From Patescibacteria group bacterium (lineage in GTDB: Bacteria; Patescibacteriota; Patescibacteriia; Magasanikbacterales; JBBTQS01), in contig JBBTQS010000001.1 in NCBI GenBank assembly GCA_038065555.1, positions 128,741-192,740 on the forward strand: 64,000 nt of DNA. The letters are read 5' to 3'. The notes under the pieces are model-generated. The model saw only the letters and a program-made list of their open reading frames with translations, searched no databases and was not told the DNA's origin. This document shows, in pieces, positions 22,358-57,655 of this stretch. The position numbers and the translations under genes are program-made. Each line of letters begins with the position of its first letter. The stretch's first letter is position 1.

Positions 22358-24397
22358 ATGCTTCAGATTCAAGATACACCTGAGAAACGTGCGCAATTGC
22401 GTACGAAGTTCTATGTCCTCGTGATTGCATGTATTGCGCTCGTGCTCTTCGTAGCGCCAGGTGCGTACAACCGGCTTTCGAGCTGGGTCAACAGCAAGAC
22501 CAACGTCAGTATTGGTCAATTGCACTTCGATCCATTCCGTCTCGGACTGGATCTGCAAGGTGGTGCACATTTGGTGTACGAAGTGGACACACGTCCAGTT
22601 CCAGCAGATGAAAATGTTGATGACGCAGTGGAAGGTGTACGCAATGTCGTGAATCGTCGTGTAAATGCATTTGGCGTAGGCGAACCAATTATTCAGACCA
22701 ACAAGAGCGGGGATACCCATCGCATTATTGTTGAATTGCCAGGTGTCTCTGACATGAACGCCGCAATTAGCGCGATTGGCAAAACGCCGATTCTTGAGTT
22801 CAAAGAAGTGGGCGAAGCAACAACAACACCGCTCACCGCAGAGGAAAAGGCCGAAATCGTAACAAAGAATACAGAGTCTAAGGCAGTGATTACCAAGGCG
22901 CTCGATGCACTTCGCAAGGGTCGCAGCCTCGATGATGTAGCAAAAGAGTTTTCTCAATTGACAGCGGCAAAGGAAAAGGGTGCAGACATGGGGCTGATTG
23001 ACGATCAATATGATGACGCAAAATTGATCGCATGGCTCAAGGCAAATCGTCCAGGCACTACTTCTGGATTCCTCGAAACGGACAAAGGGTTCTACATTCT
23101 CAAGAATAACGAAACAACAACCGGCCCAATCAAGGTGAAGGTTCGTCACATCCTCATCTGTCATCAAGGCGCAGACCAGTGTGGATTAAATATTACTGAG
23201 GAAGAGGCGCTGCGTCAGGCGAGCGAATTGCGTGGAACGCTCACGCCGCAGAATTTCGCAGAACAGGCGACGCTACGCTCTACAGATGGTTCTGCAAGCC
23301 AGGGTGGTGCACTACCAGAGTTCGGACGTAATGAAATGATTCCTGTTTTTCAGGACGCAGCATTTGCACTCAAGACAGGGGAGATTAGCCAGCCAGTGAA
23401 GTCACAGTATGGCTACCACATTATTTACAAGGAGAGTGAAGTGCGTGGAACGACCTTCAAGGTGAGTGGTGTCTATGCGCAGAAGTTCACAGAAGCAGAT
23501 TTCCAGGACGCGGCAAGTGAGTGGAAGAATACGGGACTTGGTGGCGCGCAACTTGTGCGATCTGCAGTGCAGTATGATCCTAATACCAACGCTCCTACCG
23601 TTGGACTTGAGTTCAGTGACGAAGGTGAGAAACTCTTCGCAGAGATTACTCGTCGCAACATTGGCAAGCCAATCGCTATTTTTCTCGATGGCGAAATCAT
23701 CAGTCAGCCTACGGTGAATACGGAGATTACGACGGGTGAAGCTGTGATTGAAGGTGATTTCACATTATCGCAGGCTCGTACGTTGGTTCGTGAGCTCAAT
23801 GCGGGTGCATTGCCACTTCCGGTGAAGTTGGTTTCACAACAAAAGGTAGATGCGAGTCTTGGATCTGAGTCACTCGACAAGAGTCTCATGGCAGCTCTCA
23901 TTGGGTTCGGGTTGGTGAGTCTCTTCGTGATTTTGTACTACCGACTCATGGGCGTGCTCGCGGTACTGGGATTGGGTGTGTACACGCTTATCGTTCTTGC
24001 ACTCTTCAAGATCGTTCCTGTCACCATGACCGCATCGGGTATTGCAGGATTTATCTTGTCACTTGGTACGGCGATTGATGCCAATATTCTGATCTTCGAG
24101 CGTATCAAGGAAGAGCGCCGATTGGGCAAGCGATTGCACGCAGCAATTGAAGAAGGATTTGTTCGCGCTTGGCCATCGATTCGTGATAGCAATGTTTCGA
24201 CGCTCATTACCTGTGTCATTCTCTTCTGGTTCGGAACGAGTATGGTGCGTGGATTTGCTCTGACGTTGTCCATCGGTGTTCTTGTTACCATGTTTACTGC
24301 AGTATTTGTGATCAGACTCTTCATTCGTCTGGTTGTACCACGTTTGGACGAACACACGAAGCTCGTGCTGGGAGCACCTGAGACCCCACGCGAATAA
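22358..24397 (+). CDS. secD: Protein translocase subunit SecD, with a ~190-aa parvulin/PpiC-type PPIase insertion in the periplasmic P1 domain.
   Basis: SecD N-terminal TM+P1 (LDLQGGAHLVYEVD), conserved IAIFLDGEIISQPTV and a 6-TM C-terminal domain. Residues ~175-362 carry parvulin motifs (VRHILI ... GGALPEFGRNEMIPVFQDAAFALKTGEIS ... YGYHIIYK) plus an upstream degenerate parvulin-like half. Confidence 0.9.
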   Translation: MLQIQDTPEKRAQLRTKFYVLVIACIALVLFVAPGAYNRLSSWVNSKTNVSIGQLHFDPFRLGLDLQGGAHLVYEVDTRPVPADENVDDAVEGVRNVVNRRVNAFGVGEPIIQTNKSGDTHRIIVELPGVSDMNAAISAIGKTPILEFKEVGEATTTPLTAEEKAEIVTKNTESKAVITKALDALRKGRSLDDVAKEFSQLTAAKEKGADMGLIDDQYDDAKLIAWLKANRPGTTSGFLETDKGFYILKNNETTTGPIKVKVRHILICHQGADQCGLNITEEEALRQASELRGTLTPQNFAEQATLRSTDGSASQGGALPEFGRNEMIPVFQDAAFALKTGEISQPVKSQYGYHIIYKESEVRGTTFKVSGVYAQKFTEADFQDAASEWKNTGLGGAQLVRSAVQYDPNTNAPTVGLEFSDEGEKLFAEITRRNIGKPIAIFLDGEIISQPTVNTEITTGEAVIEGDFTLSQARTLVRELNAGALPLPVKLVSQQKVDASLGSESLDKSLMAALIGFGLVSLFVILYYRLMGVLAVLGLGVYTLIVLALFKIVPVTMTASGIAGFILSLGTAIDANILIFERIKEERRLGKRLHAAIEEGFVRAWPSIRDSNVSTLITCVILFWFGTSMVRGFALTLSIGVLVTMFTAVFVIRLFIRLVVPRLDEHTKLVLGAPETPRE

Positions 24398-25518: not shown

Positions 25519-27027
25519 ATGTTCCTTCTCGAAGATTTTATCCTGACCATTAATAGCATTTTTGGTCAGCAAATCCATAGCGGATGGGAATTGTTTTTGT
25601 TCTTCTACGTTCATGGCGGGTGGATCATTCTTTTTATGTTCTTGTTTCGCGCCAGCCTCGAGATGTTCTACATCTACCGAGTTGGACGATTCATGGGCCA
25701 GAAGTTCCAATGGCATTTCATTGCCATCGACATTCCGAAGGAGAACGTGCAGACACCAGTTGCAGTAGAGAACATTTTTTCCCACCTTGCAGGTGCGCAC
25801 CAGACACGCGACTTGAAGGAAAAGTATTGGGATGGGCAGTGGCAGCAGTGGTATAGTTTTGAAATTGTAAGCATCGAAGGACACATCCAGTTCATTATCA
25901 TGCTGGAGCATTCGATGCGTGATGTTACTGAATCTGCGATTTATGCGCAGTATCCAGATGCTGAAATCACAGAGATTGAGGACTACGCAAAGGATTTCCC
26001 CAACACTTTCCCAGACAAGGAATACCAGTTGTGGGGGACCGAGTTCGAGCTCGTGAGCAGTCAGTATTTCCCAATCAAGACCTATTCGAGTTTTGAGGAC
26101 AAAATGTCCAAGGACGATCAGTTCAAGGATCCAATGGCTGCGATCCTCGAAACATTCACTCGTATTGGACGTGACGAGCAAGCGTGGTTACAGATCATCG
26201 TCTTCCCGATCGGACAATCATGGAAGGAAGAGGGGTTCAAGATGGCAAAGCAAATGTTGGGCAAGAGCGATCCACCGAAGCGCCATTGGTGGCACGATGT
26301 AGGCGAGTTCCCACTCTATATCCTCAAGCTCGCAGTCTACGGCATTGTAGGTGGTGAGGAAGTACCGAAGTTCGATAATGGGGAGAAGAAGAAGGACGAC
26401 GCCATGATGTTCGGTACATGGAATCTGACCCCGGGTGAGGTTCAGACCATCAAGGAAATGGAAGAGAAAGTATCGAAAATTGGTTACAACGTGAAGATCC
26501 GTGTGGTGTATATTGGTAAAAAAGAAGTCTTCGACAAATCTCGTATTGTGTACGGTATTGTGGGTGCAATGAAGCAGTTCACCCGTGAAGACAGCAACGC
26601 GCTCAAGCCATCATACAAACTTACTGGTACCTCGGCGCACTATATCTTCACTGATGCTCGTAAGAATGTACGAAGAACAAAGATGATCCGCGCGTACAAG
26701 TCGCGCAGTGCGTGGAGTGGTAAGTTGCCATTCGTGTTGAACGTTGAGGAGCTCGCGACCTTGTGGCATTTCCCAATCAAGTCTGTACGTGCGCCGCTTG
26801 TGCAGAAGACAACGAGCAAGCGTGGAGAAGCGCCAGTTGGCCTGCCTATGGTGTTTGAACGCAGAACACCACCGCAGCCCCAAGCTCCTGCAGCAAGTGT
26901 TCCTATGGTGATTCCTGATGAGGTAGCACATGATGTGCTCACCACTGCTGAAATCGATGGAGTACACGGTCAGAGTGCGAAGAATGCAAAGATGACAGAC
27001 GCGCCCGATAATTTGCCCTTTGTTTGA
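25519..27027 (+). CDS. Hypothetical membrane protein (N-terminal 2 TM, then ~430-aa soluble domain). Candidate membrane partner of the downstream coupling-type ATPase.
   Basis: N-terminal hydrophobic pair (WELFLFFYVHGGWIILFMFLF). No recognisable catalytic motifs. Conserved-looking C-terminal segment NVEELATLWHFPIKSVRAPLV. Confidence 0.6.
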   Translation: MFLLEDFILTINSIFGQQIHSGWELFLFFYVHGGWIILFMFLFRASLEMFYIYRVGRFMGQKFQWHFIAIDIPKENVQTPVAVENIFSHLAGAHQTRDLKEKYWDGQWQQWYSFEIVSIEGHIQFIIMLEHSMRDVTESAIYAQYPDAEITEIEDYAKDFPNTFPDKEYQLWGTEFELVSSQYFPIKTYSSFEDKMSKDDQFKDPMAAILETFTRIGRDEQAWLQIIVFPIGQSWKEEGFKMAKQMLGKSDPPKRHWWHDVGEFPLYILKLAVYGIVGGEEVPKFDNGEKKKDDAMMFGTWNLTPGEVQTIKEMEEKVSKIGYNVKIRVVYIGKKEVFDKSRIVYGIVGAMKQFTREDSNALKPSYKLTGTSAHYIFTDARKNVRRTKMIRAYKSRSAWSGKLPFVLNVEELATLWHFPIKSVRAPLVQKTTSKRGEAPVGLPMVFERRTPPQPQAPAASVPMVIPDEVAHDVLTTAEIDGVHGQSAKNAKMTDAPDNLPFV

Positions 27028-27033
27028 TATCCT

Positions 27034-28980
27034 ATGGAGGACCCAGCCCTTTCCATTTTCTCAAGACGTGATATCAACGTGTTTGCGCAGACGAGTTTTC
27101 GCAATCAGTTCCGCAAGTTCGGAATCAAGATCGATGACCGTCGCCGTCACATGTATGTGATCGGTAAAACAGGTATGGGTAAGACCACCCTGTTAGAGAA
27201 CATGGTGCTCGGCGACATCTATGCTGGTAACGGCGTAGGAATCGTTGACCCACACGGAGATTTCGCGGAGAAAATCATCAATTACATTCCAAGTAACCGC
27301 ATTAATGATGTGGTGTATTTCAATCCGTCGGACGTCGATTTTCCGATTGGTTTTAATATTCTCGAAGTGAAGGATCCTGCGCACCGACATTTGGTGGCGT
27401 CAGGTCTCATGAGTGTCTTCAAGAAGATTTGGATCGACATGTGGAGCGCACGCATGGAGTACATTCTCAATAATACGATTTTGTCACTTCTCGAGTATCC
27501 AGGATCGACGCTCTTGGGTATCAACCGATTGCTCGCAGACAAGGAGTACCGCAAGAAGGTAGTATCGGTGATCACAGATCCAGTTGTGAAGGCGTTTTGG
27601 ATTACAGAATTCGCGAAGTATAACGACAAGTATCAGCAAGAAGCCGTTGCTCCAATTCAGAACAAGATCGGTCAGTTCCTGTCCGCTTCTGTGATGCGTA
27701 ATATCGTTGCGCAGGTGAAGTCCACAATCGATATTCGTCAGATCATGGATGGTGAAAAGATTTTCATCATGAACTTGTCCAAGGGGCGTATTGGTGAGGA
27801 CTCATCGAGATTGCTCGGTGGAATGCTCATCACCAAGATTCAGCTTGCTGCCATGGAGCGTGTGGATATGCCAGAGGCAGAGCGTAAGGATTTCTTCCTG
27901 TACGTTGATGAATTCCAGAACTTCGCAACGGAATCATTTGCGAACATTCTTTCTGAGGCGCGCAAGTACCACTTGAGTCTCATCATGGCGCATCAGTACA
28001 TCAAGCAGCTCGATGAGCATGTGGCGGATGCGGTGTTTGGTAACGTTGGTACGATTGTGACATTCCGTGTAGGTGCTGAGGATGCAGAATTCATGGAGAA
28101 GGAGTTCGAGCCTGTGTTCACAGCCAATGATATTATCAATTTGCCGAAGTTCCATATCTACTTGAAGCTCATGATCAATGGTGTGGCGTCGCAGCCGTTT
28201 AGCGCCATGGGTATGCCGCCGATTGGTAATCCGACGAATAACCTGGAGAAGGTTGTCCGTATTTCTCGTGAGCGCTACGCACTGCCACGTGCAGAGATTG
28301 AGGACAAGATCATGCAGTGGAGTGGTATGGGAGATCTCGACTCTGAGGAAGCATTGTCCCAGATGGATGGTGGATCGAAGAAGCCCAAGAATAAGGAAGT
28401 GGATATTCCACAGGAACAGCGTCATCCGTATCAAGCACAGTGTTGGAAATGTTTGCGCATGACGGATGTGCCGTTCCCACCTGATGGGAAGCGTCCAACC
28501 TATTGTCGCGACTGTTATCCAGAGGCAATGCGTGAAAAGCAGGAAGGTAAGCCTGCCCCACCTCCACCACCATTTGCACTCGCATTGTTGAAGGAGAAGA
28601 AGGACGCAGACAATCGCAAGGGAGTCTCGCTCAAGGAATTGGAGCCTGCAACAGCACCCAAACCGCAGCAGACACCAACAGCAGTTGCAGCACCTCCTGT
28701 TGCGCCACTACCACAACGTCCTCCTGAGGAGCGCAGAGTTGAACCACGAAACGATGCACCACGTCCGAGATTGTCACTTGCAGTGACTCCACCAACAGAA
28801 GATGGTGAGCACAAGAAGCGACGCAAGCGGAAGCGCACAGGTGGAGGCGGTTCTTCGAGCGGCAATGGTCAGCATGACCAGCAGCGCCCACAAAATCAGC
28901 AACAGCAACCACCTCGTCCACGGTTACACTTGCCGGACTTGCCACCAGGCACTCCGACACAGCCTCCAGCGTCCCTCTAG
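27034..28980 (+). CDS. Soluble VirD4/TraD/TrwB (type IV coupling protein)-family P-loop ATPase with a C-terminal C4 zinc ribbon and a Pro/Gln-rich disordered tail.
   Basis: Walker A VIGKTGMGKTT (27163-27189) and Walker B FFLYVDEFQNF, then ARKYHLSLIMAHQYIKQLDEHVADAVFGNVGTIVTFRVG, matching the TraG/TrwB C-terminal ATPase signature. No N-terminal TM. CWKC...CRDC at 28438-28515, low-complexity tail to the end. Confidence 0.7.
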   Translation: MEDPALSIFSRRDINVFAQTSFRNQFRKFGIKIDDRRRHMYVIGKTGMGKTTLLENMVLGDIYAGNGVGIVDPHGDFAEKIINYIPSNRINDVVYFNPSDVDFPIGFNILEVKDPAHRHLVASGLMSVFKKIWIDMWSARMEYILNNTILSLLEYPGSTLLGINRLLADKEYRKKVVSVITDPVVKAFWITEFAKYNDKYQQEAVAPIQNKIGQFLSASVMRNIVAQVKSTIDIRQIMDGEKIFIMNLSKGRIGEDSSRLLGGMLITKIQLAAMERVDMPEAERKDFFLYVDEFQNFATESFANILSEARKYHLSLIMAHQYIKQLDEHVADAVFGNVGTIVTFRVGAEDAEFMEKEFEPVFTANDIINLPKFHIYLKLMINGVASQPFSAMGMPPIGNPTNNLEKVVRISRERYALPRAEIEDKIMQWSGMGDLDSEEALSQMDGGSKKPKNKEVDIPQEQRHPYQAQCWKCLRMTDVPFPPDGKRPTYCRDCYPEAMREKQEGKPAPPPPPFALALLKEKKDADNRKGVSLKELEPATAPKPQQTPTAVAAPPVAPLPQRPPEERRVEPRNDAPRPRLSLAVTPPTEDGEHKKRRKRKRTGGGGSSSGNGQHDQQRPQNQQQQPPRPRLHLPDLPPGTPTQPPASL

Positions 28981-29028: not shown

Positions 29029-30099
29029 ATGCAAGAACAGCGCAAGAAAATTCTTGTTGGAATGAGCGGCGGCGTTGACTCCTCAGTCACAGCCGCACTC
29101 TTGGTGCGCGAAGGCTACGAAGTCATTGGTGGCTACATGCGCAATTGGTCTGATGGCAAGGAAGAGAATGGCGTATGTACCTGGAAAACAGACCGACGTG
29201 ATGCGCAACGTGTTGCTGCACACCTTGGCATTCCACTCATGACGTTTGATTTCGAAGCGCAGTACCGTGCGGAGGTCGTGCAATATCTCTACGACGAGTA
29301 CGCTGCTGGACGAACTCCGAATCCTGATGTGTTGTGCAATCGCCAGATCAAGTTTGGATATTTTTTGGATGCTGCAAAACGTCTCGGATGTGATGCTGTT
29401 GCAACGGGGCATTATGCTGGTGTGCATGTAGCCGATACGGTCGCGCACCTTTTGCGTGCGAAGGACGACAACAAGGATCAGACCTATTTTCTTCATCAGC
29501 TCAATCAGGAACAATTACGCCACGCGCTTTTTCCGCTGCAGCCGTATCTCAAGAGCGAGGTGCGTGATCTTGCGCGCGAGTTCGACTTGCCAACTGCAGA
29601 GCGCAAGGAGAGTATGGGAATTTGCTTTGTAGGTCGAGTACCTATCAAAGATTTTTTGCAGTCAAACGTCGCAGCAACTCCTGGTGACGTTGTTCTCGAA
29701 GATGGAACACGTATCGGGACACATGATGGATTGCAGTTCTTCACGATTGGTCAACGACATGGATTCACGCAGCCAGGCGGCGGCGAACCGTACTATGTTG
29801 CTGCAAAGAATTTGACGACGGGGCAATTGATTGTTGCACCACGAGAAAGCGAGCTTTTGCTCTCAAATAGCGTAGAGGTCTCGAAGATGCATTGGATCTC
29901 TAGCACTTCACCCGCACAATCGCTTCGTTGTCTTGCGCGTTTGCGTCATCGCGCGCCACTGGCGTCCTGCACTGTTGACCCGCACGAAGACGGGTCTGCA
30001 ACTGTGGTTTTTGATGAGCCACAGTGGGGCGCAGCGCCTGGACAGTTTTGTGTGTTGTACACTGAGCAGGAGTGTCTCGGTGGTGGCCCTATTAGATAG
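29029..30099 (+). CDS. mnmA: tRNA-specific 2-thiouridylase MnmA.
   Basis: PP-loop ILVGMSGGVDSSV and conserved Cys residues. 356 aa. Confidence 0.9.
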   Translation: MQEQRKKILVGMSGGVDSSVTAALLVREGYEVIGGYMRNWSDGKEENGVCTWKTDRRDAQRVAAHLGIPLMTFDFEAQYRAEVVQYLYDEYAAGRTPNPDVLCNRQIKFGYFLDAAKRLGCDAVATGHYAGVHVADTVAHLLRAKDDNKDQTYFLHQLNQEQLRHALFPLQPYLKSEVRDLAREFDLPTAERKESMGICFVGRVPIKDFLQSNVAATPGDVVLEDGTRIGTHDGLQFFTIGQRHGFTQPGGGEPYYVAAKNLTTGQLIVAPRESELLLSNSVEVSKMHWISSTSPAQSLRCLARLRHRAPLASCTVDPHEDGSATVVFDEPQWGAAPGQFCVLYTEQECLGGGPIR

Positions 30100-30107
30100 C
30101 TACGTCG

Positions 30108-30137
30108 CCCTCTCTTCACATCCTCGTGAAGAGAGGG
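30108..30137 (+). other. Perfect 12-bp stem / 6-nt loop hairpin downstream of mnmA. Possible terminator/attenuator or RNA processing structure, with no U-tract.
   Basis: ccctctcttcac-atcctc-gtgaagagaggg. Confidence 0.35.
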
Positions 30138-30172
30138 TAATCTATCAATCAGTTGCCCTATCTCCAAATCGT

Positions 30173-31972
30173 ATGACAGCACAAGAACTCGTCCAAAAAT
30201 ACATTCAGTTTTTTGTAGAACGCGGACATGCGGAGATCCCATCTGCACCCCTGATTCCAGAAAATGACCCAACTGTACTCTTCACGACCGCCGGGATGCA
30301 CCCACTGGTCCCTTTTTTGCTTGGCGAGCGGCATCCTGCTGGTACGCGTCTGGTGGACTTCCAGCGTTGTGTTCGCACGGGCGATATTGATGAAGTGGGG
30401 GATGCTACACACAACACATTCTTCACCATGCTCGGCAATTGGTCGCTTGGTGATTATTTCAAGAAAGAATCGATTACGTGGAGTTACCAGCTGCTCACAC
30501 AGGCATTTGGAATTGATCCGAAGAATCTCGCTGTGACGGTGTTCGAAGGCGATGCTGATGCGCCGCGTGACGAAGAATCTGCAGGGTATTGGCGTGAGCT
30601 CGGTGTTGCGGCTGAGCGCATCGCCTTTTTGCCCAAAGGTGATAACTGGTGGGGACCTGCTGGCGTGACAGGACCGTGCGGCCCAGACACCGAGATTTTC
30701 TTTTGGACTGGGGACGAGGAAGCGCCTGCGGTGTATGACCCGAAGGACAAACGTTGGGTGGAGATTTGGAACAACGTGTTCATGCAGTACAACAAACAAG
30801 CAGATGGTACGTTTGCAGTTCTTGCAAAACCAAATGTAGACACAGGGCTGGGCCTTGAGCGTACGCTTGCGGTTCTCAATGGCAAGAAATCTGGATATGA
30901 CACGGAATTGTTCAGTGGAATGCTCGGTGCTATCGCAGCAGCGAGTGGCAAAATGTATGGTGCTGATGACGTAACAACCTTCTCGATGCGTGTCATCGCA
31001 GATCATGTGCGCACAGGCATTATGATCATTGCGGACGGTATGGTACCGAGCAACAAGGATCAAGGGTACGTACTTCGCCGACTCATTCGTCGCGCAGTTC
31101 GACATGCGCGCAAGCTCGGTGTTGAGAACATCGAATCGCTCTTGCGCGCGCTCACTGATGCAGCAGTCGCATCATTGGGCATGCTGTACGCGCATCTCGA
31201 GCCACAGCGTGAGCACGTGGTGACTGTACTCCTTGCAGAAGCAAAGAAGTTCGAAGCCACGATTCAGAAAGGCCTCAAGGAAGTGCAGCACATCTGGGAA
31301 ACACGCAAAGAAGTAACGGCCAAGGATGCGTTCGATCTCTACCAGTCATATGGATTTCCACTCGAGTTAACTGAAGAAGTGGCTCGCGAGTATGGACAAG
31401 TCATTGATGCAGCAGCATTTCGTGCTTCATTTGCAGAGCATCAGACACTATCACGCGCTGGAGCAGAGAAGAAGTTCGCAGGTGGGCTTGCTGATCATTC
31501 AGCAGAGACAACGCGATTGCACACCGCAACGCACTTGTTGCACAAAGCACTCAAAAATATTCTAGGCGAAGAGGTCCAACAGAAGGGGAGTAATATCACC
31601 GCAGAGCGTTTGCGATTTGACTTCAACTATCCAACGAAGGTAACGGACGAGCAGCTCAAAGCGATTGAGGATATGGTCAATGAGCAAATTGCGAAGGAAT
31701 TGCCTGTTGGGTTCAAGGAGCTCACGCCAGAGGAAGCAAAGGCAAGCAATGCCATCGGGTATTTCGAGGACAAATACGCACAGCTCGGTGGCAAGCTCAA
31801 GGTCTATGCCGTGGGCGATGACGCACGTGGATACTACTCAAGTGAAATTTGTGGCGGACCACATGTAGCTAATACTGCCGAACTCAAGCATTTCCGTATC
31901 CAAAAGGAGGAAGCGGTTTCAGCGGGTATTCGTCGTATCAAGGCTACGGTTGATGCTAATGGACACGCATGA
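30173..31972 (+). CDS. alaS: Alanyl-tRNA synthetase, short form (~600 aa: catalytic, tRNA-recognition and editing domains, no C-Ala domain).
   Basis: AlaRS N-terminal motifs (FTTAGMHPLVPF, FTMLGNWSLGDYFK). Editing-domain HTATHLLH and CGGPH. Ends right after the editing domain. Confidence 0.85.
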   Translation: MTAQELVQKYIQFFVERGHAEIPSAPLIPENDPTVLFTTAGMHPLVPFLLGERHPAGTRLVDFQRCVRTGDIDEVGDATHNTFFTMLGNWSLGDYFKKESITWSYQLLTQAFGIDPKNLAVTVFEGDADAPRDEESAGYWRELGVAAERIAFLPKGDNWWGPAGVTGPCGPDTEIFFWTGDEEAPAVYDPKDKRWVEIWNNVFMQYNKQADGTFAVLAKPNVDTGLGLERTLAVLNGKKSGYDTELFSGMLGAIAAASGKMYGADDVTTFSMRVIADHVRTGIMIIADGMVPSNKDQGYVLRRLIRRAVRHARKLGVENIESLLRALTDAAVASLGMLYAHLEPQREHVVTVLLAEAKKFEATIQKGLKEVQHIWETRKEVTAKDAFDLYQSYGFPLELTEEVAREYGQVIDAAAFRASFAEHQTLSRAGAEKKFAGGLADHSAETTRLHTATHLLHKALKNILGEEVQQKGSNITAERLRFDFNYPTKVTDEQLKAIEDMVNEQIAKELPVGFKELTPEEAKASNAIGYFEDKYAQLGGKLKVYAVGDDARGYYSSEICGGPHVANTAELKHFRIQKEEAVSAGIRRIKATVDANGHA

Positions 31973-33657
31973 TGCGCCGTTGGTTGAGCCGCGTTCATCT
32001 CCCGATTTTCCTTCTGATTCTTGTTGCACTTTCTGCGCACGGGCAAATGCTCGGGCGCGGATTTGTGTCTGATGATTGGGATTGGTTGCATATCGCGGCA
32101 ACAGCGCAGTTCCCAGAGTATTTTGTTGGTAATTACGCAGGAGAGCATGCTGTTGGTGGATCGTATCGTCCTGTTGTGACGGTTGTGATGCAGATGCTGT
32201 ACGCACTGTTCGGGCTGCAGGCTATTTGGTACCACGCGCTTTCTCTGGTGTTGCTCGTGGTCACAGCTATTGGTATTGCACGACTGGTGCAGACTATATT
32301 TGCCTCTGTGAGACAGCAGACGTGGATTGCGTGGATGAGCGCGCTTTTGTTTGTGCTCATTCCAACACATGCAGAAGCAGTGTATTGGGTTGCAGGGCTT
32401 CCGGATATGATCGCAGCTGCGTGTATGGTCTGGTCCAGTGTGTGGATGGTGCGGTGGCTACGCTACAATTCGTGGCGTAGCGCTGTGGTTGCGGTGGTCC
32501 TCTGGATCATAGCGCTCGGTGCAAAGGAGAATGCGGTAGTGTTGCCGGGGATTTGGTTCGCGTGCACCGCAGTGATCGCGTCTCTTGAGTGGGATCGGTC
32601 AGCATATCGATCCCGTGTGTTGCCACTGTTGCGATGGTTTGGGGGGGCGATCGCAATCCTTGTTGCTTTTGTCCTATTGCGTCGCTACGCAGTTGGGAGT
32701 AGCACATTGGTATACAGCGTTGCGGCAGCACAACTCTCACTACACAGCGCAGCTATTTCGTTGTTGCACACGTTAGTTGCGCCTGTTGTTGGATGGCATG
32801 AGATTCGACATCAGATTGTTGCGTGGGTGTGGGAGTACCGTGTATGGGTTGTGAGTGTTGTCGGTGCACTCGGATTAGGTACAATAGGCTATGGCGTGCG
32901 CAGATATGGGCGCACCACAGGTGCTGCGTTGGCACTGTTGGCTGCATTCATGATCGCTGCAATCCCAAATACTGTTGTGACATACCACCCGGTCTTTGCA
33001 GAGGGGGAGCGATTTGCATATTTTCCATCGGTGTTCATCGCAGTACTCCTTGCGTGGGGTTGTAGTTGGCTGATTACGTTGCAGCAGCAGTTGGGACGTG
33101 CAGCAACGCTCATGCTCGCACTGAGTATGACAATTGCTATTCCTCATTATCATCGTGCATGGGATGAAGCAGACCGCGCACTCGCAACAGTGCAGCAGGA
33201 CCTCACGACCTACGCAGCGACGCACTCACGTCCACAAGCAGTACTGATTGGTCTTCCAGAATTCGCACACACTATCGCTCCAGTTCTGCGCAACGGATTG
33301 CCGCAGTGGTATGCGATGACACATGACCTTGCGCCTTCCCCCTATGGTCGGTTACCCTATTACACGCAGTGGGACGGTCGCAGTGCAATGACATGGGTTG
33401 CAGACACCAATGGGTGGAAGGCAACGTATGCCACAAGCACATCACTGTGGGGCCCAGCCACATACGCGGATAGTAACCACCTGGTAGAATTATGGGGGTA
33501 TAACTACGCATTGCAGCATGGCGGGAACTTCGTGAAGTTCGTCTATCGTCCTGATGACCCCCGTACGAAGAGCTATCGCAGTGAAATATCGCCACCGATT
33601 ATTGCGTGGAGCAAAGACGGGTTTATCCCCATGCCACAGGCCACGTCGCTAAAATAA
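31969..33657 (+). CDS. GT-C fold membrane glycosyltransferase (PMT/ArnT-like, GT39/GT83 type).
   Basis: ~12 predicted TM helices with an acidic first-loop motif (FVSDDWDW) typical of GT-C enzymes. ATGA overlap with the alaS stop. Confidence 0.5.
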
Positions 33658-33694
33658 GCTAAATCATGTTGCAAAAATCGATTTTTATTGTCTA

Positions 33695-33723
33695 TTGACA
33701 GGAAATTTCACTTCACCTATACT
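33695..33723 (+). promoter_or_regulatory. Consensus sigma70 promoter TTGACA-17-TATACT for the infA-rpmJ-rpsM-rpsK-rpsD-rpoA-rplQ operon.
   Basis: ttgaca at 33695-33700, 17-nt spacer, tatact at 33718-33723. The infA ATG at 33737 implies a very short leader. Confidence 0.6.
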
Positions 33724-33736
33724 ACCGACAGTATTT

Positions 33737-33961
33737 ATGCCCGATCCATCGAAAAACGACGTTGTAGAGTTTGTAGGCGTGATTGAGGAATTGTTGCCAG
33801 CTGGCATGTTCCGCGTCCGTCTCGAGAACGAGCATATGATTCTTGCATACTTGTCAGGCAAGATGCGCAAGAATCATATTCGCCTCACCACAGGCGATTC
33901 TGTGCGCGTTGAAATGTCTCCCTACGACCTTACGAAAGGGCGAATCGTGTATCGTCAATAA
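33737..33961 (+). CDS. infA: Translation initiation factor IF-1.
   Basis: 74 aa, S1-like OB fold sequence [64 protein letters not shown]. Confidence 0.9.
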
Positions 33962-34087: not shown

Positions 34088-34474
34088 ATGGCACGTATCT
34101 CAGGTATTACACTTCCAAAGGACAAGCGCGTTGACGTGGCGCTTACATATATTTACGGCATCGGACCAGCCATTGCGAAGCTCATCATTGCGAAGACTCA
34201 GATCAAGCCTGAGATTCGTGTGAAGGATCTCTCCCAAGCTGAAGAAGATCGCCTGCGCACTGTTGTGGAGAAGGAATACGCAACTGAAGGAGATTTGCGC
34301 CGTAACATTGCGATGAACATCAAGCGTCTCAAGGACATCAAGTCCTATCGCGGCACTCGTCATGCGAAGCGTCTCCCAGCACGCGGTCAGCGCACCAAGG
34401 TCAACTCGCGTACCGTTCGCGGCAACACGCGCAAGACCATGGGTTCTGGCAAAAAGCCAGTTGGTCTCAAGTAA
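34088..34474 (+). CDS. rpsM: 30S ribosomal protein S13.
   Basis: MARISGITLPKDKRVDVALTYIYGIG... Confidence 0.95.
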   Translation: MARISGITLPKDKRVDVALTYIYGIGPAIAKLIIAKTQIKPEIRVKDLSQAEEDRLRTVVEKEYATEGDLRRNIAMNIKRLKDIKSYRGTRHAKRLPARGQRTKVNSRTVRGNTRKTMGSGKKPVGLK

Positions 34475-34492: not shown

Positions 34493-34909
34493 ATGGCACA
34501 AACGAACAAACCAGCGGCAGCAGTAAAGGCGAAAGTCGCTAAGAAAAAGAAAGTAGCACGCAACGTACCAAAGGGTCTTGCGTACATCAATGCAACCTAC
34601 AACAACACCATCGTATCTGTAACTGACCTTGACGGTAACGTTCTCGGTTGGGCAAGCGCAGGTATGGTTGGGTTCAAGGGTCCAAAGAAGGCGACACCAT
34701 ACGCAGCTTCGATGATCGTCAAGAAAATCATGGAAGGCATCGCAGCAGTAGGTATCCAGGAAGTGACTGTATTTATCAAGGGTATTGGCCAGGGTCGCGA
34801 AGGAGCAATCCGCGCGTTCCATGCAAATAACGTAGCGGTGAATGGTATCAACGATGTGACACCAATTCCGCACAATGGTTGCCGCCCACGCAAGCGCCGC
34901 CGCGTGTAA
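34493..34909 (+). CDS. rpsK: 30S ribosomal protein S11.
   Basis: ...AYINATYNNTIVSVTDLDGNVLGWASAGMVGFKG... Confidence 0.95.
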   Translation: MAQTNKPAAAVKAKVAKKKKVARNVPKGLAYINATYNNTIVSVTDLDGNVLGWASAGMVGFKGPKKATPYAASMIVKKIMEGIAAVGIQEVTVFIKGIGQGREGAIRAFHANNVAVNGINDVTPIPHNGCRPRKRRRV

Positions 34910-34931
34910 TACTCTCCAGAACGCAACGATT

Positions 34932-35552
34932 ATGCCAGTACAATATCATGAATCTAAGTGTGTGAAGTGCCGCCGCGAGGGCGTCAAGCTTTTCCTCAAA
35001 GGTGAGAAATGCTTTACGACCAAGTGTCCGGTTGCTCGCCGTCCATTTGCCCCTGGTCAGCACGGTCCAACCGCGCGCCGACCAAAGGTTTCGGTTTACG
35101 GTTCGCAGCTTCGCGAAAAGCAAAAAGCAAAGCGTATTTACGGTCTCACCGAAGCCCAGTTCATGGGATATGTTGAGCGCGCAAACCGCAAAGTAGGTGA
35201 CACAGGTGTAATGCTCCAGCAGATGCTCGAGACACGTCTTGATAACGTGGTCTACCGCCTTGGATTCGCTGCATCACGCTTTGATGCTCGTCAAAAAGTT
35301 TCCCACTGCCACATGACTGTGAACGGTAAGTCCGTGAACATTCCATCATACCGCGTTGCGGTAGGGGATGTGATCGCGCTTGACGCCACCAAGTTTGCGG
35401 CAATCAAGGAACGCGTTAGCAAACACCAAGCTCCATCATGGCTCGCGCTCGACGCGAGTGCGATGAGCGGCAAAATGGTCGCAATTCCGGGAAAAACGGA
35501 CTTCGACACGGTGTTTGACACCAAAATGATCATTGAATTCTATTCACGCTAA
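34932..35552 (+). CDS. rpsD: 30S ribosomal protein S4 (zinc-ribbon containing form).
   Basis: MPVQYHESKCVKCRREGVKLFLKGEKCFTTKCP... Confidence 0.92.
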   Translation: MPVQYHESKCVKCRREGVKLFLKGEKCFTTKCPVARRPFAPGQHGPTARRPKVSVYGSQLREKQKAKRIYGLTEAQFMGYVERANRKVGDTGVMLQQMLETRLDNVVYRLGFAASRFDARQKVSHCHMTVNGKSVNIPSYRVAVGDVIALDATKFAAIKERVSKHQAPSWLALDASAMSGKMVAIPGKTDFDTVFDTKMIIEFYSR

Positions 35553-35562
35553 ATCCATTTCT

Positions 35563-36252
35563 ATGGAGGCACTTCTTTTGCCAAGCTCTACAACCTATAG
35601 CGAGCTCGAGACCCCGCATACGGCAGAGATCGTGGTTAGCCCGTGCTATCACGGCTACGGCACGACCATTGGCAACATGTTGCGCCGCGTGCTCCTCTCA
35701 TCCCTTCCTGGTGCTGCAATTACTGCAGTGAAGATCAAGGGAGTTGCTCATGAGTTCTCCGGCATTGACGGCGTTCTCGAAGACGTAGTGCAGATTCTCC
35801 TCAACCTCAAGAAAGTACGTGTTCGCGTGCACTCTGAGAACGAGGTGAAGATCACACTCAAGGCAACAGGCGCTCGCGCAGTAACGGCTGCAGACATTGA
35901 AGGTAACTCTGATGTCGAAGTCGTGAACCCAGAGGCACACATTGCAACCATCACGGATGCAAAGAAGGTACTCGAAATGGAAATCATGGTTCGTCAGGGT
36001 CGCGGATACGTTCCGGTAGAGGAGCGTGGCGACGAAAGTTTGGAACTCGGCATGATCGCAGTGGATGCGGTGTACACCCCAGTGGTGGACGTCGGATACC
36101 ACGTAGAGTTCACCCGTGTGGGTGACATCACCAACTACGAGAAGCTCACACTTCGCGTACAGACAGACGGTACACTCTCCCCAAAGGATGCAGTGACCCA
36201 GTCGGTGAAGATCCTTGCTGACCACCTCAATATCATTCAGTCCATCGCGTAA
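35563..36252 (+). CDS. rpoA: DNA-directed RNA polymerase alpha subunit, N-terminal (dimerisation/assembly) domain only. No alpha-CTD.
   Basis: 229 aa ending ...VTQSVKILADHLNIIQSIA, against ~330 aa for typical RpoA. The next gene (rplQ) starts 35 nt later. Confidence 0.85.
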   Translation: MEALLLPSSTTYSELETPHTAEIVVSPCYHGYGTTIGNMLRRVLLSSLPGAAITAVKIKGVAHEFSGIDGVLEDVVQILLNLKKVRVRVHSENEVKITLKATGARAVTAADIEGNSDVEVVNPEAHIATITDAKKVLEMEIMVRQGRGYVPVEERGDESLELGMIAVDAVYTPVVDVGYHVEFTRVGDITNYEKLTLRVQTDGTLSPKDAVTQSVKILADHLNIIQSIA

Positions 36253-36286
36253 GGAGCGAGACAACAGTCACAGTAACAGCAGGCCT

Positions 36287-36637
36287 ATGCGCCACAATAA
36301 TAAAGTCAAAACATTCGATCGTAAGAAGGCATCTCGCGAAGCCCTCTTCCGCTCCCTCGCGGAGTCGGTGATTCTTCGTGAGCGTGTGGAGACGACTCAG
36401 GCAAAGGCCAAGTACGTCCGCCCGCTTGTTGAGAAGCTTATTACGCTCGGAAAGAAGCGATCGTTGCACGCACAGCGTGAGATCCTCAAGCAGGTGTACA
36501 CCCAGCAAGCTCGTAAGAAGTTGGTTGAGGCACTTGCTGACAAGTATCAGGATCGCGCAGGTGGGTACACACGTATCGTTGCATCTGGATGCCGTCCTGG
36601 TGATGGAGCATCTATGGCTATTATCGAATTGGTCTAA
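36287..36637 (+). CDS. rplQ: 50S ribosomal protein L17.
   Basis: MRHNNKVKTFDRKKASREALFRSLAESVI... Confidence 0.95.
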   Translation: MRHNNKVKTFDRKKASREALFRSLAESVILRERVETTQAKAKYVRPLVEKLITLGKKRSLHAQREILKQVYTQQARKKLVEALADKYQDRAGGYTRIVASGCRPGDGASMAIIELV

Positions 36638-36642
36638 TCCCT

Positions 36643-36990
36643 ATGAGCAAAACACATACTATTGATGCTACAGGGCAGGCTCCAGGTCGCGTTGCAACCG
36701 CAGTTGCACGCATCCTCATGGGCAAGCACACCGCTCAGTACGAACCACGCGTGTGGTCCGGTGAGCCAGTGCATGTTATCAATGCAGGAGCGATCAAGAC
36801 CACTCCAAAGAAGTTGGAGCAGAAGAACTACTACCGTCACAGCAAGTATCCAGGTGGTTTGAAAACAACGACTATGGAGAAGGCAATGGCAAAGGACCCA
36901 ACGTTCATCATTCGCCACGCAGTAGCTCGCATGTTGCCGAAGAACAATATGCGCGTCCGCATGCTTAAGAACTTGCGCATTACCGCATAA
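36643..36990 (+). CDS. rplM: 50S ribosomal protein L13.
   Basis: MSKTHTIDATGQAPGRVATAVARILMGKH... Confidence 0.95.
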   Translation: MSKTHTIDATGQAPGRVATAVARILMGKHTAQYEPRVWSGEPVHVINAGAIKTTPKKLEQKNYYRHSKYPGGLKTTTMEKAMAKDPTFIIRHAVARMLPKNNMRVRMLKNLRITA

Positions 36991-36994
36991 CGCT

Positions 36995-37396
36995 ATGGCA
37001 GAAACGACAAATCTCATCGCGACCATCGGTCGCCGCAAGTGTGCTAGCGCTCGCGTTCGTCTCACTCCAAATGGTACAGGTAAAGTATTGGTGAATGGCA
37101 TGGACCACACGAAGTACTTTGCAACTGAGGAGCAGCGTCAGATCGCTGTCTCTCCGCTTACCGCAGTAGGTAAGGCTGAGACCACAGACACTTCCGTGAA
37201 AGTTCTCGGCGGTGGTAAGAAGGGTCAGTCAGTAGCAGTACGCCTCGGCATTGCACGCGCACTTATCGAACTCGATGAGACATTGCGCAAGTCACTCAAG
37301 GCACTTGGCTATCTCTCTCGCGACGCACGTGTGAAGGAACGTAAGAAATTCGGACATCGCAAAGCTCGCCGCTCTCCACAGTGGAGCAAGCGTTAA
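36995..37396 (+). CDS. rpsI: 30S ribosomal protein S9.
   Basis: C-terminal ...GHRKARRSPQWSKR. Confidence 0.95.
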   Translation: MAETTNLIATIGRRKCASARVRLTPNGTGKVLVNGMDHTKYFATEEQRQIAVSPLTAVGKAETTDTSVKVLGGGKKGQSVAVRLGIARALIELDETLRKSLKALGYLSRDARVKERKKFGHRKARRSPQWSKR

Positions 37397-37449
37397 GCAA
37401 GAAGGACAGTCGCATTCCCATGCGGCTGCTTTTCTTTTATACTTGTTCT

Positions 37450-44517: not shown

Positions 44518-45915
44518 TTATTTCTTGCCGATCGTGGTTGCATTGAGCTCAATAGGAACTCCAATTGGCGCTCCTAGGAGTGCCTGTTCATTCACGTACA
44601 GAATGTTTTCTTTCTTATATCCCAATCCTTGGAAGACCGCATCATTAGGAATGAGTCGACGGGTGCCGTCAGAGACAACGTAGGTGAAAGGAGACCCCTT
44701 CACAGAAATGAGTGTACCTTCGCGGAATGTATATGCCTTGTTGACCAGTGGGTATTCAGCGAGTGTTTTCATGTCTACGACGATAGGCTTCGCGTTCGGG
44801 AATTGTGCCTTCACAATATCCAAGTGTGCGATGGGTTGTCGCATGCCGTTCTCCACGTAGTAGTATGCGCCAGACTTCTTCTCCTTCATGACCGTTCCGA
44901 GAGGGTAGATTGAGGCGCTTGTAATAATGTTGCCCTGGTAGTAGTCGTCGAGTTCTGCGGTTGTGATGTCGATGACTTCGCCTGGATTGTAGCCAAGCTG
45001 ACGGAATACTTCCTTGGAAGGAATGTAGCGAATCGTGTCATCTTGGAGCAAGTACGTCATCCCATTCTCGATGCGCAAAATAGAGTAGTTAGCGAATTTG
45101 ATTGCAGGACCCTCCTCGAAGGATTGCAAATCTGCATCGCTGATTTCGATAATTTGCGATGGGTTGTATCGGCTCGTGAGTGCGGTGAGGGATGCAAATG
45201 GTCGGCGCATTCCTTTTTGGATGATGTACACCGTCTTGCTGCTCTTGGTCTTTACGAGCGAGCCATTGGGGTAGACACGTGTGAACCAGCGATTCCAAAT
45301 CTTCCACAAATTCGCATTGCCATTGATGTGCGGAGTATAGGTGTAGAGGAATCCTGTTGCGAAATTCTGTGGTGTAACTGGTGTGTTGCTAAAGGTATAT
45401 TGCTGTCCAACCTTCTTGAACGATGGGTGTGATTGGTGCTCGTACCACCAGCGCACAGATCCTGCTGCATTATCGATTTGTTTTGCGAATCCTTTGAATT
45501 TGCCGATGGCTGGATCGTCCATCGAGCAGGAATCGCACACAGCGTAGCCTGTTGCCCAGTCGAGCGCCTTTTGTGATGGGAATTGCTTCTCTACAAGGCT
45601 TTGCTCCTTTTGCAACAGAACGAGAAGATACCGTGGGTTGACGGTGTAGAGCTGTGCTGCGTTGTAGATAATGTCGCTGGCGCGCTGGAGTGAGTTGGTT
45701 GTGACATCAATGTCCTTGTACGTGCTCAGTCCACTGCGTCGTGATTCCAGGAATCCTTGAATCGTGTCACGCGACATGGATGTAGAATCGAACATCTCCG
45801 CATCACTAATAATGTGCGCTGGATTGAATTCAGCTGCTGTAGCAAGAAGTGGTTGTGCAACCAACATCCCTGCAAAAACAGCTGCAAAAATGGTTTTGGG
45901 TAAAGAAAATGGCAT
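44518..45915 (-). CDS. Secreted protein: signal peptide, N-terminal domain of unknown (possibly cell-wall-related) function, and four tandem ~55-aa repeats.
   Basis: Signal peptide MPFSLPKTIFAAVFAGMLVAQPLLATAAE. Repeats such as GTLISVKGSPFTYVVSDGTRRLIPNDAVFQGLGYKKENILYVNEQALLGAPIG recur 4 times. Confidence 0.6.
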   Translation of the reverse strand: MPFSLPKTIFAAVFAGMLVAQPLLATAAEFNPAHIISDAEMFDSTSMSRDTIQGFLESRRSGLSTYKDIDVTTNSLQRASDIIYNAAQLYTVNPRYLLVLLQKEQSLVEKQFPSQKALDWATGYAVCDSCSMDDPAIGKFKGFAKQIDNAAGSVRWWYEHQSHPSFKKVGQQYTFSNTPVTPQNFATGFLYTYTPHINGNANLWKIWNRWFTRVYPNGSLVKTKSSKTVYIIQKGMRRPFASLTALTSRYNPSQIIEISDADLQSFEEGPAIKFANYSILRIENGMTYLLQDDTIRYIPSKEVFRQLGYNPGEVIDITTAELDDYYQGNIITSASIYPLGTVMKEKKSGAYYYVENGMRQPIAHLDIVKAQFPNAKPIVVDMKTLAEYPLVNKAYTFREGTLISVKGSPFTYVVSDGTRRLIPNDAVFQGLGYKKENILYVNEQALLGAPIGVPIELNATTIGKK

Positions 45916-52302: not shown

Positions 52303-53580
52303 CTACTGTGCAGTATGTACGCGTGTACCAATCACCTTGGACTCAGTGTAGACCTCAGCATCGCCACCAACGATGAGCTGCTCTACAGCAGTGGTGAAGA
52401 TTTCTCCGTCCATTCGGTCAATGTCCATGTTCTCGAGGCCTTTGAGTACCACAGCGAACACTCGTTGACCACCTGAGACAACAGAGATATCGAGGAACGA
52501 GAACTTTTGTGTTTGGAGTCCATTGCGAATTGATGTGCCACCTGCAACGTTCTTGAATGTGACAACCGAGCCGAAGTCAACTGATCCTGGTGTGACGTCG
52601 ACGATCTCAATCGTTTTTGCAATCATGTCAGAGGCACTGTTAGCAGTCTCGAATGCAAACCACAGCTCCTGGATATGCTGCGTAGTCGCAGAATTGTTGT
52701 AGATAAAGAATCGACCCACTTCAATATTTTCCTTTCGCAGAGCGCCTTGTGTTGGAGCACCGGAGTGCGCTGCAATATAGAGATCATAGTATGTCACAAA
52801 CGTCCCAGACTCCTCGATGCGGTCCCTACCTTCGCTGTCAGCGATGGTGATGGTATATGCGTACTTGGAGCGTGGCGCAAGAGCACCGAGCGTAAAGGTG
52901 TGTGTGGTGTTCGCTGTTGTAGATTTGCGAGTGATCGTCTGTAGTGCTCCACCATCGATAGGGCGGTAGGAGAGAGTCACTGTAGAGGGTGCAGTGGTCT
53001 GCAGTCGAATATCACCTGCAGTCTTGCTTGTTGCGGTGAATGATCGTGACACAATATCAAATGCAACAGGCTCTTGCTCAACAGGTGGTGTAGATGTCGG
53101 TGTCTCGACCGGAGAAGCGGGGAGTGTGCCAACAATCTTGTAACTGGTAAAGAAGCCATCTGGGATGTCACGGACTTCGTTGAACTGCTTACCCAGTGCA
53201 AGGAATTCTTTTTCTGTTGGGATGGCGGTGAGCTCGAGGTCACCAGACACCAAATACACGGTAGGGAGTGACGGAGATTTTACGACACTACCAGTCTTGA
53301 AGCTCTTCACTCGTCGAACGGGGAGCGTTGCGAGTGTTTCGAGTGAGACAACTTTGACTGCTGCGAAGTTCTTGCCATACCAGGACTCGTAGACCGACTG
53401 CATTTGAAAAACAAGACGAGAGTCATCAGAACCAATTTCGTACACAGTAGAGGAGCCAGCTGTCTTCACCAGGTCGCCTGCGACTAACCCTTGAGCAACC
53501 TGTGCCGACGCGCTTTGCGGTGAGAGTAAGAAAGCAAGGGTCGCAAGGAGCAACAGAGGTCGTGAAGCAGATGTTCGCAT
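52303..53580 (-). CDS. Secreted protein with signal peptide and two N-terminal copies of the same ~55-aa repeat found in 44518-45915, then a Thr/Ser-rich region and a beta-rich C-terminal domain.
   Basis: Signal peptide RPLLLLATLAFLLSPQSASA. Repeats GDLVKTAGSSTVYEIGSDDSRLVF... and GSVVKSPSLPTVYLVSGDLELTAIPTEKEFLALGKQF... Confidence 0.55.
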   Translation of the reverse strand: MRTSASRPLLLLATLAFLLSPQSASAQVAQGLVAGDLVKTAGSSTVYEIGSDDSRLVFQMQSVYESWYGKNFAAVKVVSLETLATLPVRRVKSFKTGSVVKSPSLPTVYLVSGDLELTAIPTEKEFLALGKQFNEVRDIPDGFFTSYKIVGTLPASPVETPTSTPPVEQEPVAFDIVSRSFTATSKTAGDIRLQTTAPSTVTLSYRPIDGGALQTITRKSTTANTTHTFTLGALAPRSKYAYTITIADSEGRDRIEESGTFVTYYDLYIAAHSGAPTQGALRKENIEVGRFFIYNNSATTQHIQELWFAFETANSASDMIAKTIEIVDVTPGSVDFGSVVTFKNVAGGTSIRNGLQTQKFSFLDISVVSGGQRVFAVVLKGLENMDIDRMDGEIFTTAVEQLIVGGDAEVYTESKVIGTRVHTAQ

Positions 53581-53727
53581 AGATGGATCGTCCTTAATGG
53601 AGTCAGTATACACTAATTGGAGGAGCAAAGAAACAGTTTTTGGAACTGCGTATTATTGTGTCGCACAATATATCTTATACGACACCACAGGATCGCACTT
53701 CAAAAACCACAGGTCTTACTTTACAGC

Positions 53728-56827: not shown

Positions 56828-57655
56828 TTATTGCTGCAACAAGGTCACGAGCTGTCGCGAAGAGAGTGAGGAAAGTGCACGGTTAGCGGATACATCAGAT
56901 CCACAGATCAACATTTTGGAGCTGTGGTGCAAATACCAGTCTGCATCTGGTTCGAGTGTGCGCACTGCTGTCGCTACACGAGTCAGATCAACACGGGAAT
57001 CATTACGTGACTTGATAGACAAGTAGTGTGTCGCAGGATTGCTGTATACAAACAGTACATAGTCTTGCGCATACGCAATGCGCGCGACTACCTTGGAACT
57101 CACGGTTGTGGTCACTGCAACACCCTTCCCCCACTTGGTCGTGAATTCCTTGCGCTTTTTCCAGTCACGCATGCACCATTCTTTTTCGAGCAGTCCTTCG
57201 TAGACACCGGCAAGATATTGCTCGCCGAACTGGAGCGCGCCCTCTGACCCCTCCCCTGTTACGCGACCCAAATACGTGAAGACTGAACCGATCATGAATT
57301 CGCGTGTTGGTGAGGCGAAGAGCATGCCGTGATCCTCTTCGTTGACGTACGCAACAAGTGCGTCCATGGCTTTGCGCTCTTCGGGGGTTTTGACAGCACA
57401 CTCCGGTTGCTTCTTGCAGTATTTCCAGACGAGCGTCGTCGCGCTATCTGCACGATCGCCCTTGTGCTCATCAAACTGACCACGTCCTACACCAATTGCC
57501 ATTCGGTCTGCGCTGTCCTTGCGTGTATAAGAAGCGTCTGCCGCAATGAACTCAACACGCGCCTTCTTCCATGCAGGAAGTGCGCGGCGAAGTACCCAAA
57601 TAGCTGCGACATCATCGAGGTGTGGATTCTTGTGCGTGACGAAGAGCTTGGGCAT
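56828..57655 (-). CDS. Hypothetical protein, possibly a metal-dependent phosphoesterase/hydrolase (MYG1/UPF0160- or DHH-like N-terminal motif).
   Basis: N-terminal FVTHKNPHLDDVAAIWVL and GRGQFDEH His/Asp motifs. Weak assignment. Confidence 0.3.
   Translation of the reverse strand: MPKLFVTHKNPHLDDVAAIWVLRRALPAWKKARVEFIAADASYTRKDSADRMAIGVGRGQFDEHKGDRADSATTLVWKYCKKQPECAVKTPEERKAMDALVAYVNEEDHGMLFASPTREFMIGSVFTYLGRVTGEGSEGALQFGEQYLAGVYEGLLEKEWCMRDWKKRKEFTTKWGKGVAVTTTVSSKVVARIAYAQDYVLFVYSNPATHYLSIKSRNDSRVDLTRVATAVRTLEPDADWYLHHSSKMLICGSDVSANRALSSLSSRQLVTLLQQ

Follow-up and report, generated by a model that had tools for sequence, protein, structure and literature searches.

Every bacterial RNA polymerase is usually assumed to include the C-terminal domain of the α subunit (α-CTD), which mediates the stimulation of strong promoters by UP elements, for example those of rRNA, and class I activation. 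The rpoA gene in the 64-kb stretch of DNA analyzed here (the window), which comes from an uncultivated Patescibacteria (CPR) bacterium, raises the question of whether its product truly lacks this domain and, if so, how the domain came to be absent. A preliminary description of the window had claimed that rpoA encodes only 229 aa, stops after the N-terminal assembly domain (α-NTD) and leaves no room for an α-CTD before rplQ. Our analysis makes it very probable that this is a functional rpoA without the linker and the α-CTD, a state reached by evolutionary loss, fixed across a large clade of Patescibacteria and leaving an α subunit for assembly only.

The length of 229 aa was borne out by the open reading frame (Table 1), and the stop after the assembly domain by the domain content and end point of its product. 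In a Pfam scan, RNA_pol_L (PF01193) was matched at residues 27-222 (E=6.3e-23), interrupted by the RNA_pol_A_bac insert (PF01000) at residues 56-172 (E=4e-33), and no RNA_pol_A_CTD (PF03118) was found even at E≤1. Both NCBIfam equivalog models of rpoA are passed on the NTD alone, TIGR02027 with 256.8 bits (cut-off 227.8) and NF003519 with 280 bits (cut-off 277). The matches span positions 2-210 of 298 and 13-228 of 320, respectively, leaving the C-terminal third of each model unmatched. Alignment with the E. coli and B. subtilis subunits, which the preliminary description had proposed as a check, covered only their α-NTD portions when the window RpoA was compared with solved structures (E. coli residues 17-229 of 329; B. 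subtilis residues 21-225 of 314, E=6e-62). In BLASTP against E. coli RpoA (NC_000913), window residue 222 lies opposite E. coli residue 228; therefore, the C-terminal residue 229 corresponds to E. coli residue 235, the end of the crystallised α-NTD construct 1BDF. The GNMLRR motif of the window RpoA aligns with GNALRR (R45) in the β-binding region of E. coli. The AlphaFold2 model, built with 43 homologues, has a pLDDT of 88.1, and its last helix (residues 207-228) extends to the C-terminus. Foldseek matched the model to the α-NTDs of E. coli, Thermus, M. tuberculosis, and B. subtilis with TM scores of 0.87-0.90 and about 2 Å rmsd. A TTG start at 35533, which would add 10 aa, was ruled out by the N-termini of homologues (consensus MExILLPS) and by the gene calls on other contigs. 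The window RpoA is a complete α-NTD without linker and without CTD.

Table 1. Features of the rpoA operon in the 64-kb window (positions are those of the window).
Feature	Position	Strand	Remarks
Sigma-70-type promoter-like site	33695..33723	+	TTGACA-17-TATACT, assigned by consensus matches only (11/12); upstream of infA
infA (IF-1)	33737..33961	+	PF01176; first gene of the apparent infA-rpmJ-rpsM-rpsK-rpsD-rpoA-rplQ-rplM-rpsI unit
rpsM (S13)	34088..34474	+	From translation; PF00416 in gene calls
rpsK (S11)	34493..34909	+	From translation; PF00411 in gene calls
rpsD (ribosomal protein S4)	34875..35552	+	PF00163 and PF01479; canonical upstream neighbour of rpoA
rpoA	35563..36252	+	229-aa RNA polymerase α, N-terminal (dimerisation/assembly) domain only; ATG start, TAA stop at 36250-36252
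rpoA-rplQ spacer	36253..36286	+	34 nt; below the size of any domain
rplQ (ribosomal protein L17)	36287..36637	+	Ribosomal_L17 PF01196, E=7.6e-32; canonical downstream neighbour of rpoA; ATG at 36287
rplM (L13)	36643..36990	+	From translation, Pfam and gene calls
rpsI (S9)	36995..37396	+	From translation, Pfam and gene calls
Terminator-like hairpin	37407-37428		Downstream of rpsI

The gene order rpsM-rpsK-rpsD-rpoA-rplQ is that of E. coli. The preliminary description placed the start of rplQ 35 nt after rpoA; the proximity stands, and the exact spacer is one nucleotide shorter. With 34 nt there is no room for an α-CTD before rplQ, and no CTD-like coding was found in the spacer in any frame.

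A short rpoA may also result from a sequencing or assembly error, a scaffold gap, a recent nonsense mutation or a pseudogene, in which case the real protein would have a CTD; an error of this kind had been named in the preliminary description as a possible refutation. Such cases do occur: in a related rpoA (L082), the apparent 'split' comes from a scaffold gap of 10 N, and several database 'RpoA' representatives carry frameshifted junk tails. Against this, 11 independently assembled contigs from independent runs, including ERR3858121, ERR3094302, SRR22387988, and ERR3858137, encode exactly the same 229-aa protein. Four of the 11 have lengths of 0.2-1 Mb, the gene neighbours are the same in all, and the 4.7 kb flanking rpoA on the matching contigs is 97.5-100% identical to the window. 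An orthologue from run SRR12901042 (P0001/L087), with 91% nucleotide identity within rpoA, differs from the window gene by 54 synonymous and 4 non-synonymous codons and keeps the TAA at the same codon, whereas its spacer to rplQ has diverged. These codon changes, the shared stop and the diverged spacer indicate strong purifying selection on a protein ending at residue 229. Together with the short distance to rplQ and the CTD-less state of all 120 nearest protein clusters, these observations make the probability of an artefact negligible, and the short rpoA holds.

The length of rpoA in the closest relatives, a further check proposed in the preliminary description, places the missing domain in a wider context. 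PF03118 was found in none of the 120 nearest 90%-identity protein clusters (57-98% identity, lengths of 193-311 aa), whose named members belong to Magasanikbacteria, Uhrbacteria, Falkowbacteria or 'Patescibacteria group'. We also surveyed the 80 nearest loci in GTDB with one genome per species. The best species-representative match to the window RpoA is only 63% identical, and the window organism therefore has no close species representative. Among these representatives, 76 of 80 are CTD-less, with rpoA ending 3-60 aa past the NTD, and a CTD with the motif LSxRSxNxL...GxGxKSxxEI is recognisable in four (L030, L031, L035, and L061). As a control of detection, we took the CTD-bearing L035 RpoA and found PF03118 in 120 of its 120 nearest neighbours, which carry Parcubacteria/Moranbacteria names. 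It follows that the profile does work on CPR sequences and that the domain has been lost specifically in one part of Patescibacteria. Of the best 150 representatives at 50% clustering, 79 carry a CTD; the other 71, which include some frameshifted junk, are without it, and the representatives nearest to the window RpoA are the CTD-less ones. CTD loss is fixed across a large clade, with the public names Magasanikbacteria, Uhrbacteria, Falkowbacteria, Kerfeldbacteria, and Veblenbacteria, among others, which we take to correspond roughly to the GTDB class ABY1. Two database proteins from the search for representatives, P0132 (526 aa) and P0139 (664 aa), carry two diverged α copies per chain in the arrangements NTD-NTD-CTD and NTD-CTD-NTD-CTD, respectively, and may be natural single-chain α dimers. 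Another protein (P0129) consists of two identical α copies and has the appearance of an assembly artefact.

The CTD might persist as a separate gene, or fused to another protein, and act in trans; a CTD encoded elsewhere was the second refutation that the preliminary description had considered. The window covers only 64 kb of the genome, and short PF03118-only proteins exist in databases, both of which leave room for a relocated domain. With an HMM built from four CPR CTDs and the E. coli CTD, however, the six-frame translation of the 64-kb window gave no CTD (best E=3.8). The CPR-CTD profile found just eight short PF03118-only proteins (P0121-P0128) among 5.8 billion proteins. These are mostly contig-end fragments on contigs of about 1 kb, and the CTD-retaining lineage is the source of them all. 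In P0128, a frame error has fused the CTD to L17. P0125/L082, the single one on a long contig, comes from the split rpoA mentioned above (GCA_964405805.1, L082 9917-10000), in which a 213-aa NTD and a 92-aa CTD open reading frame are separated by the 10-N gap inside rpoA. Short 'α-CTD only' database entries should thus be regarded as artefacts until checked. JGI metagenome contigs, scanned with this profile, had no orphan CTD in any of the 44 loci matched; the CTD lies in frame behind an NTD without a stop, or a contig end lies just upstream of it. The unrelated tails at the CTD position in relatives also argue for loss and not for relocation. Moreover, tethering to the NTD is what lets the CTD work, which weighs against action in trans. 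We consider a relocated CTD quite improbable, and infer that the remainder of the genome beyond the window does not encode one either. None of these searches turned up a stand-alone gene for a CPR-type CTD.

We prefer the loss of the domain, and the relatives show what stands in its place. Their NTDs are followed by acidic tails of 0-70 aa, often ending in a lysine-rich or AT-hook-like peptide, and the window RpoA is tail-less. The tails are of low complexity (26% Glu, 16% Ala, and 16% Lys). A tail of 8 aa or less is present in 18 of the 120 protein clusters, an acidic-only tail in 41, an acidic tail with a lysine-rich end (KKAKKAKK, KKKVSKKKK) in 54, and a tail with a K(K/R)RGR(P/K)KK-type motif in 7. 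The corresponding counts for the 80 GTDB loci are 19, 22, 30, and 6, as given by an automated classifier that scored three loci as CTD and missed one of the four CTD loci. Acidic tails capped with the KKRGRPKK-type motif belong to clusters P0075, P0078, P0100, P0054, P0041, P0062, and P0085 and to loci L010, L025, L032, L036, L046, and L077. Purely basic tails are present in some more distant representatives (P0163, P0172, P0207, P0222, and P0276). The tails were ruled out as degenerate CTDs by their E/A/K-rich low complexity and the lack of PF03118 signal. Since CTD-bearing CPR α subunits already have long acidic linkers, the acidic tails are plausibly the retained linker.

The sole Pfam family matching the RGRP tails is AT_hook (PF02178), with 11.8-15.6 bits, below the cut-off of 17.4 bits; from their sequences, the RGRP tails of relatives (e.g., P0075, P0100, L025, and L046) may be called AT-hook-like, and no more. 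The C-terminus of the window RpoA has no AT-hook R-G-R-P core and no residues past the NTD. In an NJ tree of the NTDs, a crude tree of a single 225-aa domain, the window RpoA groups with P0001, P0004, P0002, and P0003, which have tails of 0-10 aa, and this group adjoins P0005-P0008 with acidic tails of 22-60 aa. Forms without a tail are spread over at least five distinct sub-branches, and those with a CTD or an AT-hook lie near the base. This arrangement suggests an order of change from the CTD to a basic-ended tail, then to an acidic stump and finally to nothing, although a single-domain NJ tree is no proof of it. Tentatively, the CTD may have been replaced by a disordered acidic linker with a lysine-rich or AT-hook end that reads the minor groove of A/T-rich DNA upstream, as a convergent mini UP-element reader, which the window lineage and four or more further sub-branches later dropped; we find this scenario possible but rather doubtful. 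If it is true, the window lineage would have the most stripped-down α known outside insect endosymbionts, with promoter recognition by sigma alone.

The DNA upstream of the operon bears on the same point. The best promoter-like site of the operon is ahead of infA, and an A/T tract at 33672-33689 (caaaaatcgatttttatt) lies just upstream of its −35 hexamer, in the position of an UP element, as a single anecdotal case. The tract occurs in an organism whose α has no CTD to bind such DNA. The upstream DNA could still be read by some other reader, or the tract may merely belong to an AT-rich intergenic region. A reading in which the CTD was lost and its anchoring to A/T-rich upstream DNA was taken over, by the tail end in relatives and by an RNAP-associated DNA-binding factor in the tail-less window organism, would agree with this tract. 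It would also agree with the basic cluster that ends about half of the CTD-less tails, with the presence of the KKRGRPKK-type motif in 13 tails, among them some on basal and scattered branches, and with AT_hook being the sole family match of these tails. However, the window RpoA is wholly tail-less, the AT_hook scores stay below the cut-off, and Pfam found no sigma factor, other RNAP subunit, RNAP-binding protein or transcription factor among the approximately 55 window ORFs that were scanned. We regard such a takeover as unlikely.

The approximately 55 scanned ORFs include, by Pfam, SecA, Maf, SecD/SecF, a VirD4-like ATPase, MnmA, AlaRS, ribosomal proteins, a flippase, glycosyltransferases, Fmt, PriA, ClpB, Mur ligases, PBPs, MreB/C, and several aminoacyl-tRNA synthetases, and Rfam found one tRNA. 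In the SecD ORF (22358-24397, +), a PPIC-type peptidyl-prolyl isomerase (Rotamase) domain is inserted at residues 249-358, after the N-terminal P1 segment of SecD and before the P1 head; a translocon subunit fused in this way to a foldase domain is unusual. The ORF at 27034-28980 (+), between secF and mnmA, encodes a VirD4/TrwB-like type IV coupling ATPase with a treble-clef zinc finger, and a 502-aa ORF without Pfam match (25519-27027) adjoins its upstream side. The alanyl-tRNA synthetase ORF (29933-31972, +) stops directly after tRNA_SAD, without the C-terminal C-Ala/DHHA1 region; it overlaps mnmA, so that its real start is probably later, and the AlaRS called in L082, a related locus, is comparably short (588 aa). 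Further ORFs of 275-562 aa without Pfam match are located at 31969-33657 (+), 44518-45915 (-), 52303-53628 (-), 56828-57655 (-), and 258-1151 (-). The first of these (562 aa), directly 5' of infA, has the appearance of a multi-pass membrane protein and occupies the usual place of secY-adk-map.

For the assembly-only α that we favour, the biochemistry of E. coli and B. subtilis offers a guide to function. By analogy with E. coli α(1-235), the 229-aa α-NTD would dimerise and scaffold β and β' into the core RNA polymerase. We infer that it assembles the core, in line with the GNMLRR motif and the purifying selection seen in the sequence comparison. The holoenzyme would then make no α-CTD/UP-element contacts and would have no class I-type activation. 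Without an α-CTD, promoter recognition should therefore rest on sigma contacts and on any factors touching sigma, β/β' or the α-NTD. In many relatives, a disordered acidic tail with a lysine-rich or AT-hook-like end fills the position of the CTD, and the window lineage, like four or more further sub-branches, has no such tail either. The whole lineage probably does without one of the textbook routes by which bacterial promoters are activated.

A large and widespread CTD-less clade means that the α-CTD is dispensable in nature outside insect endosymbionts. Its absence fits the limited set of regulators to be expected in small-genome, host-dependent bacteria. The states found in one clade (CTD, acidic tail with an AT-hook or lysine-rich end, acidic-only tail, and none) form a natural series for studying what contacts with upstream DNA add to transcription. 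For annotation, this means that a short rpoA in these genomes is a real gene and not a truncated fragment.

The phenomenon is known in kind and barely recorded for the Patescibacteria group. Loss of the α-CTD has been described in the endosymbionts Hodgkinia and Tremblaya, and one sentence of the same paper states it for Parcubacteria and also for microalgal chloroplasts (PMC8321222, 2021). The work cited there for Parcubacteria (Nelson and Stegen 2015; PMC4508563) mentions neither polymerase, rpoA nor α in its main text, and the published Parcubacteria claim therefore rests on one unsupported sentence. Besides PMC8321222, we found no literature linking the α-CTD or rpoA to CPR, Patescibacteria or Parcubacteria, and no description of the clade specificity, the replacement tails or the tail-less end state of the loss.

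Among known systems, the canonical RpoA (E. coli b3295, 329 aa; B. subtilis, 314 aa) shares with the window subunit an α-NTD (42% identity to E. coli over residues 8-228), a TM score of about 0.9, the GNxLRR β-binding motif and the place in the operon between rpsD and rplQ. The window RpoA differs in having neither the linker of about 14 aa nor the helix-hairpin-helix CTD of about 80 aa (PF03118) that binds UP elements and class I activators. The archaeal RpoD and eukaryotic Rpb3-AC40 resemble it as two-domain α-like assembly platforms without a CTD. However, the window RpoA scores only 28.5 bits against the cut-off of 153 of the NCBIfam RpoD model (NF001988) and is a typical bacterial α-NTD. 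CarD-type proteins of Myxococcus combine an RNAP-binding domain with an acidic region and AT-hooks. They resemble only the tails of the relatives, in which an acidic stretch is followed by an AT-hook-like basic peptide on an RNAP-bound module. There is no homology, the relatives have one sub-threshold AT-hook-like motif instead of several, and the window RpoA has none.

The closest engineered counterpart is E. coli α(1-235), which still assembles the core enzyme and supports basal transcription. The window RpoA ends at the residue aligned to position 235 of this construct (1BDF), and the truncation is here the wild-type, selected state of a lineage and not a mutant. B. subtilis with a CTD-less α continues to grow for hours at about half the rate, with lower transcription of genes for ribosome synthesis and secondary carbon sources (PMC4495994). 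The closest natural counterparts are the CTD-less α subunits of the Hodgkinia, Tremblaya, and Parcubacteria type, which share with the window RpoA the natural loss, the retained NTD, the small genomes and the host-dependent lifestyles. The window gene ends after the NTD, and this state is fixed in its lineage and not sporadic, as expected of a naturally CTD-less α. In contrast to the few insect endosymbionts, the clade of the window organism is large, diverse, and environmentally widespread. The one-sentence report on Parcubacteria differs in that the loss described here is clade-specific within Patescibacteria, while a neighbouring lineage keeps the CTD.
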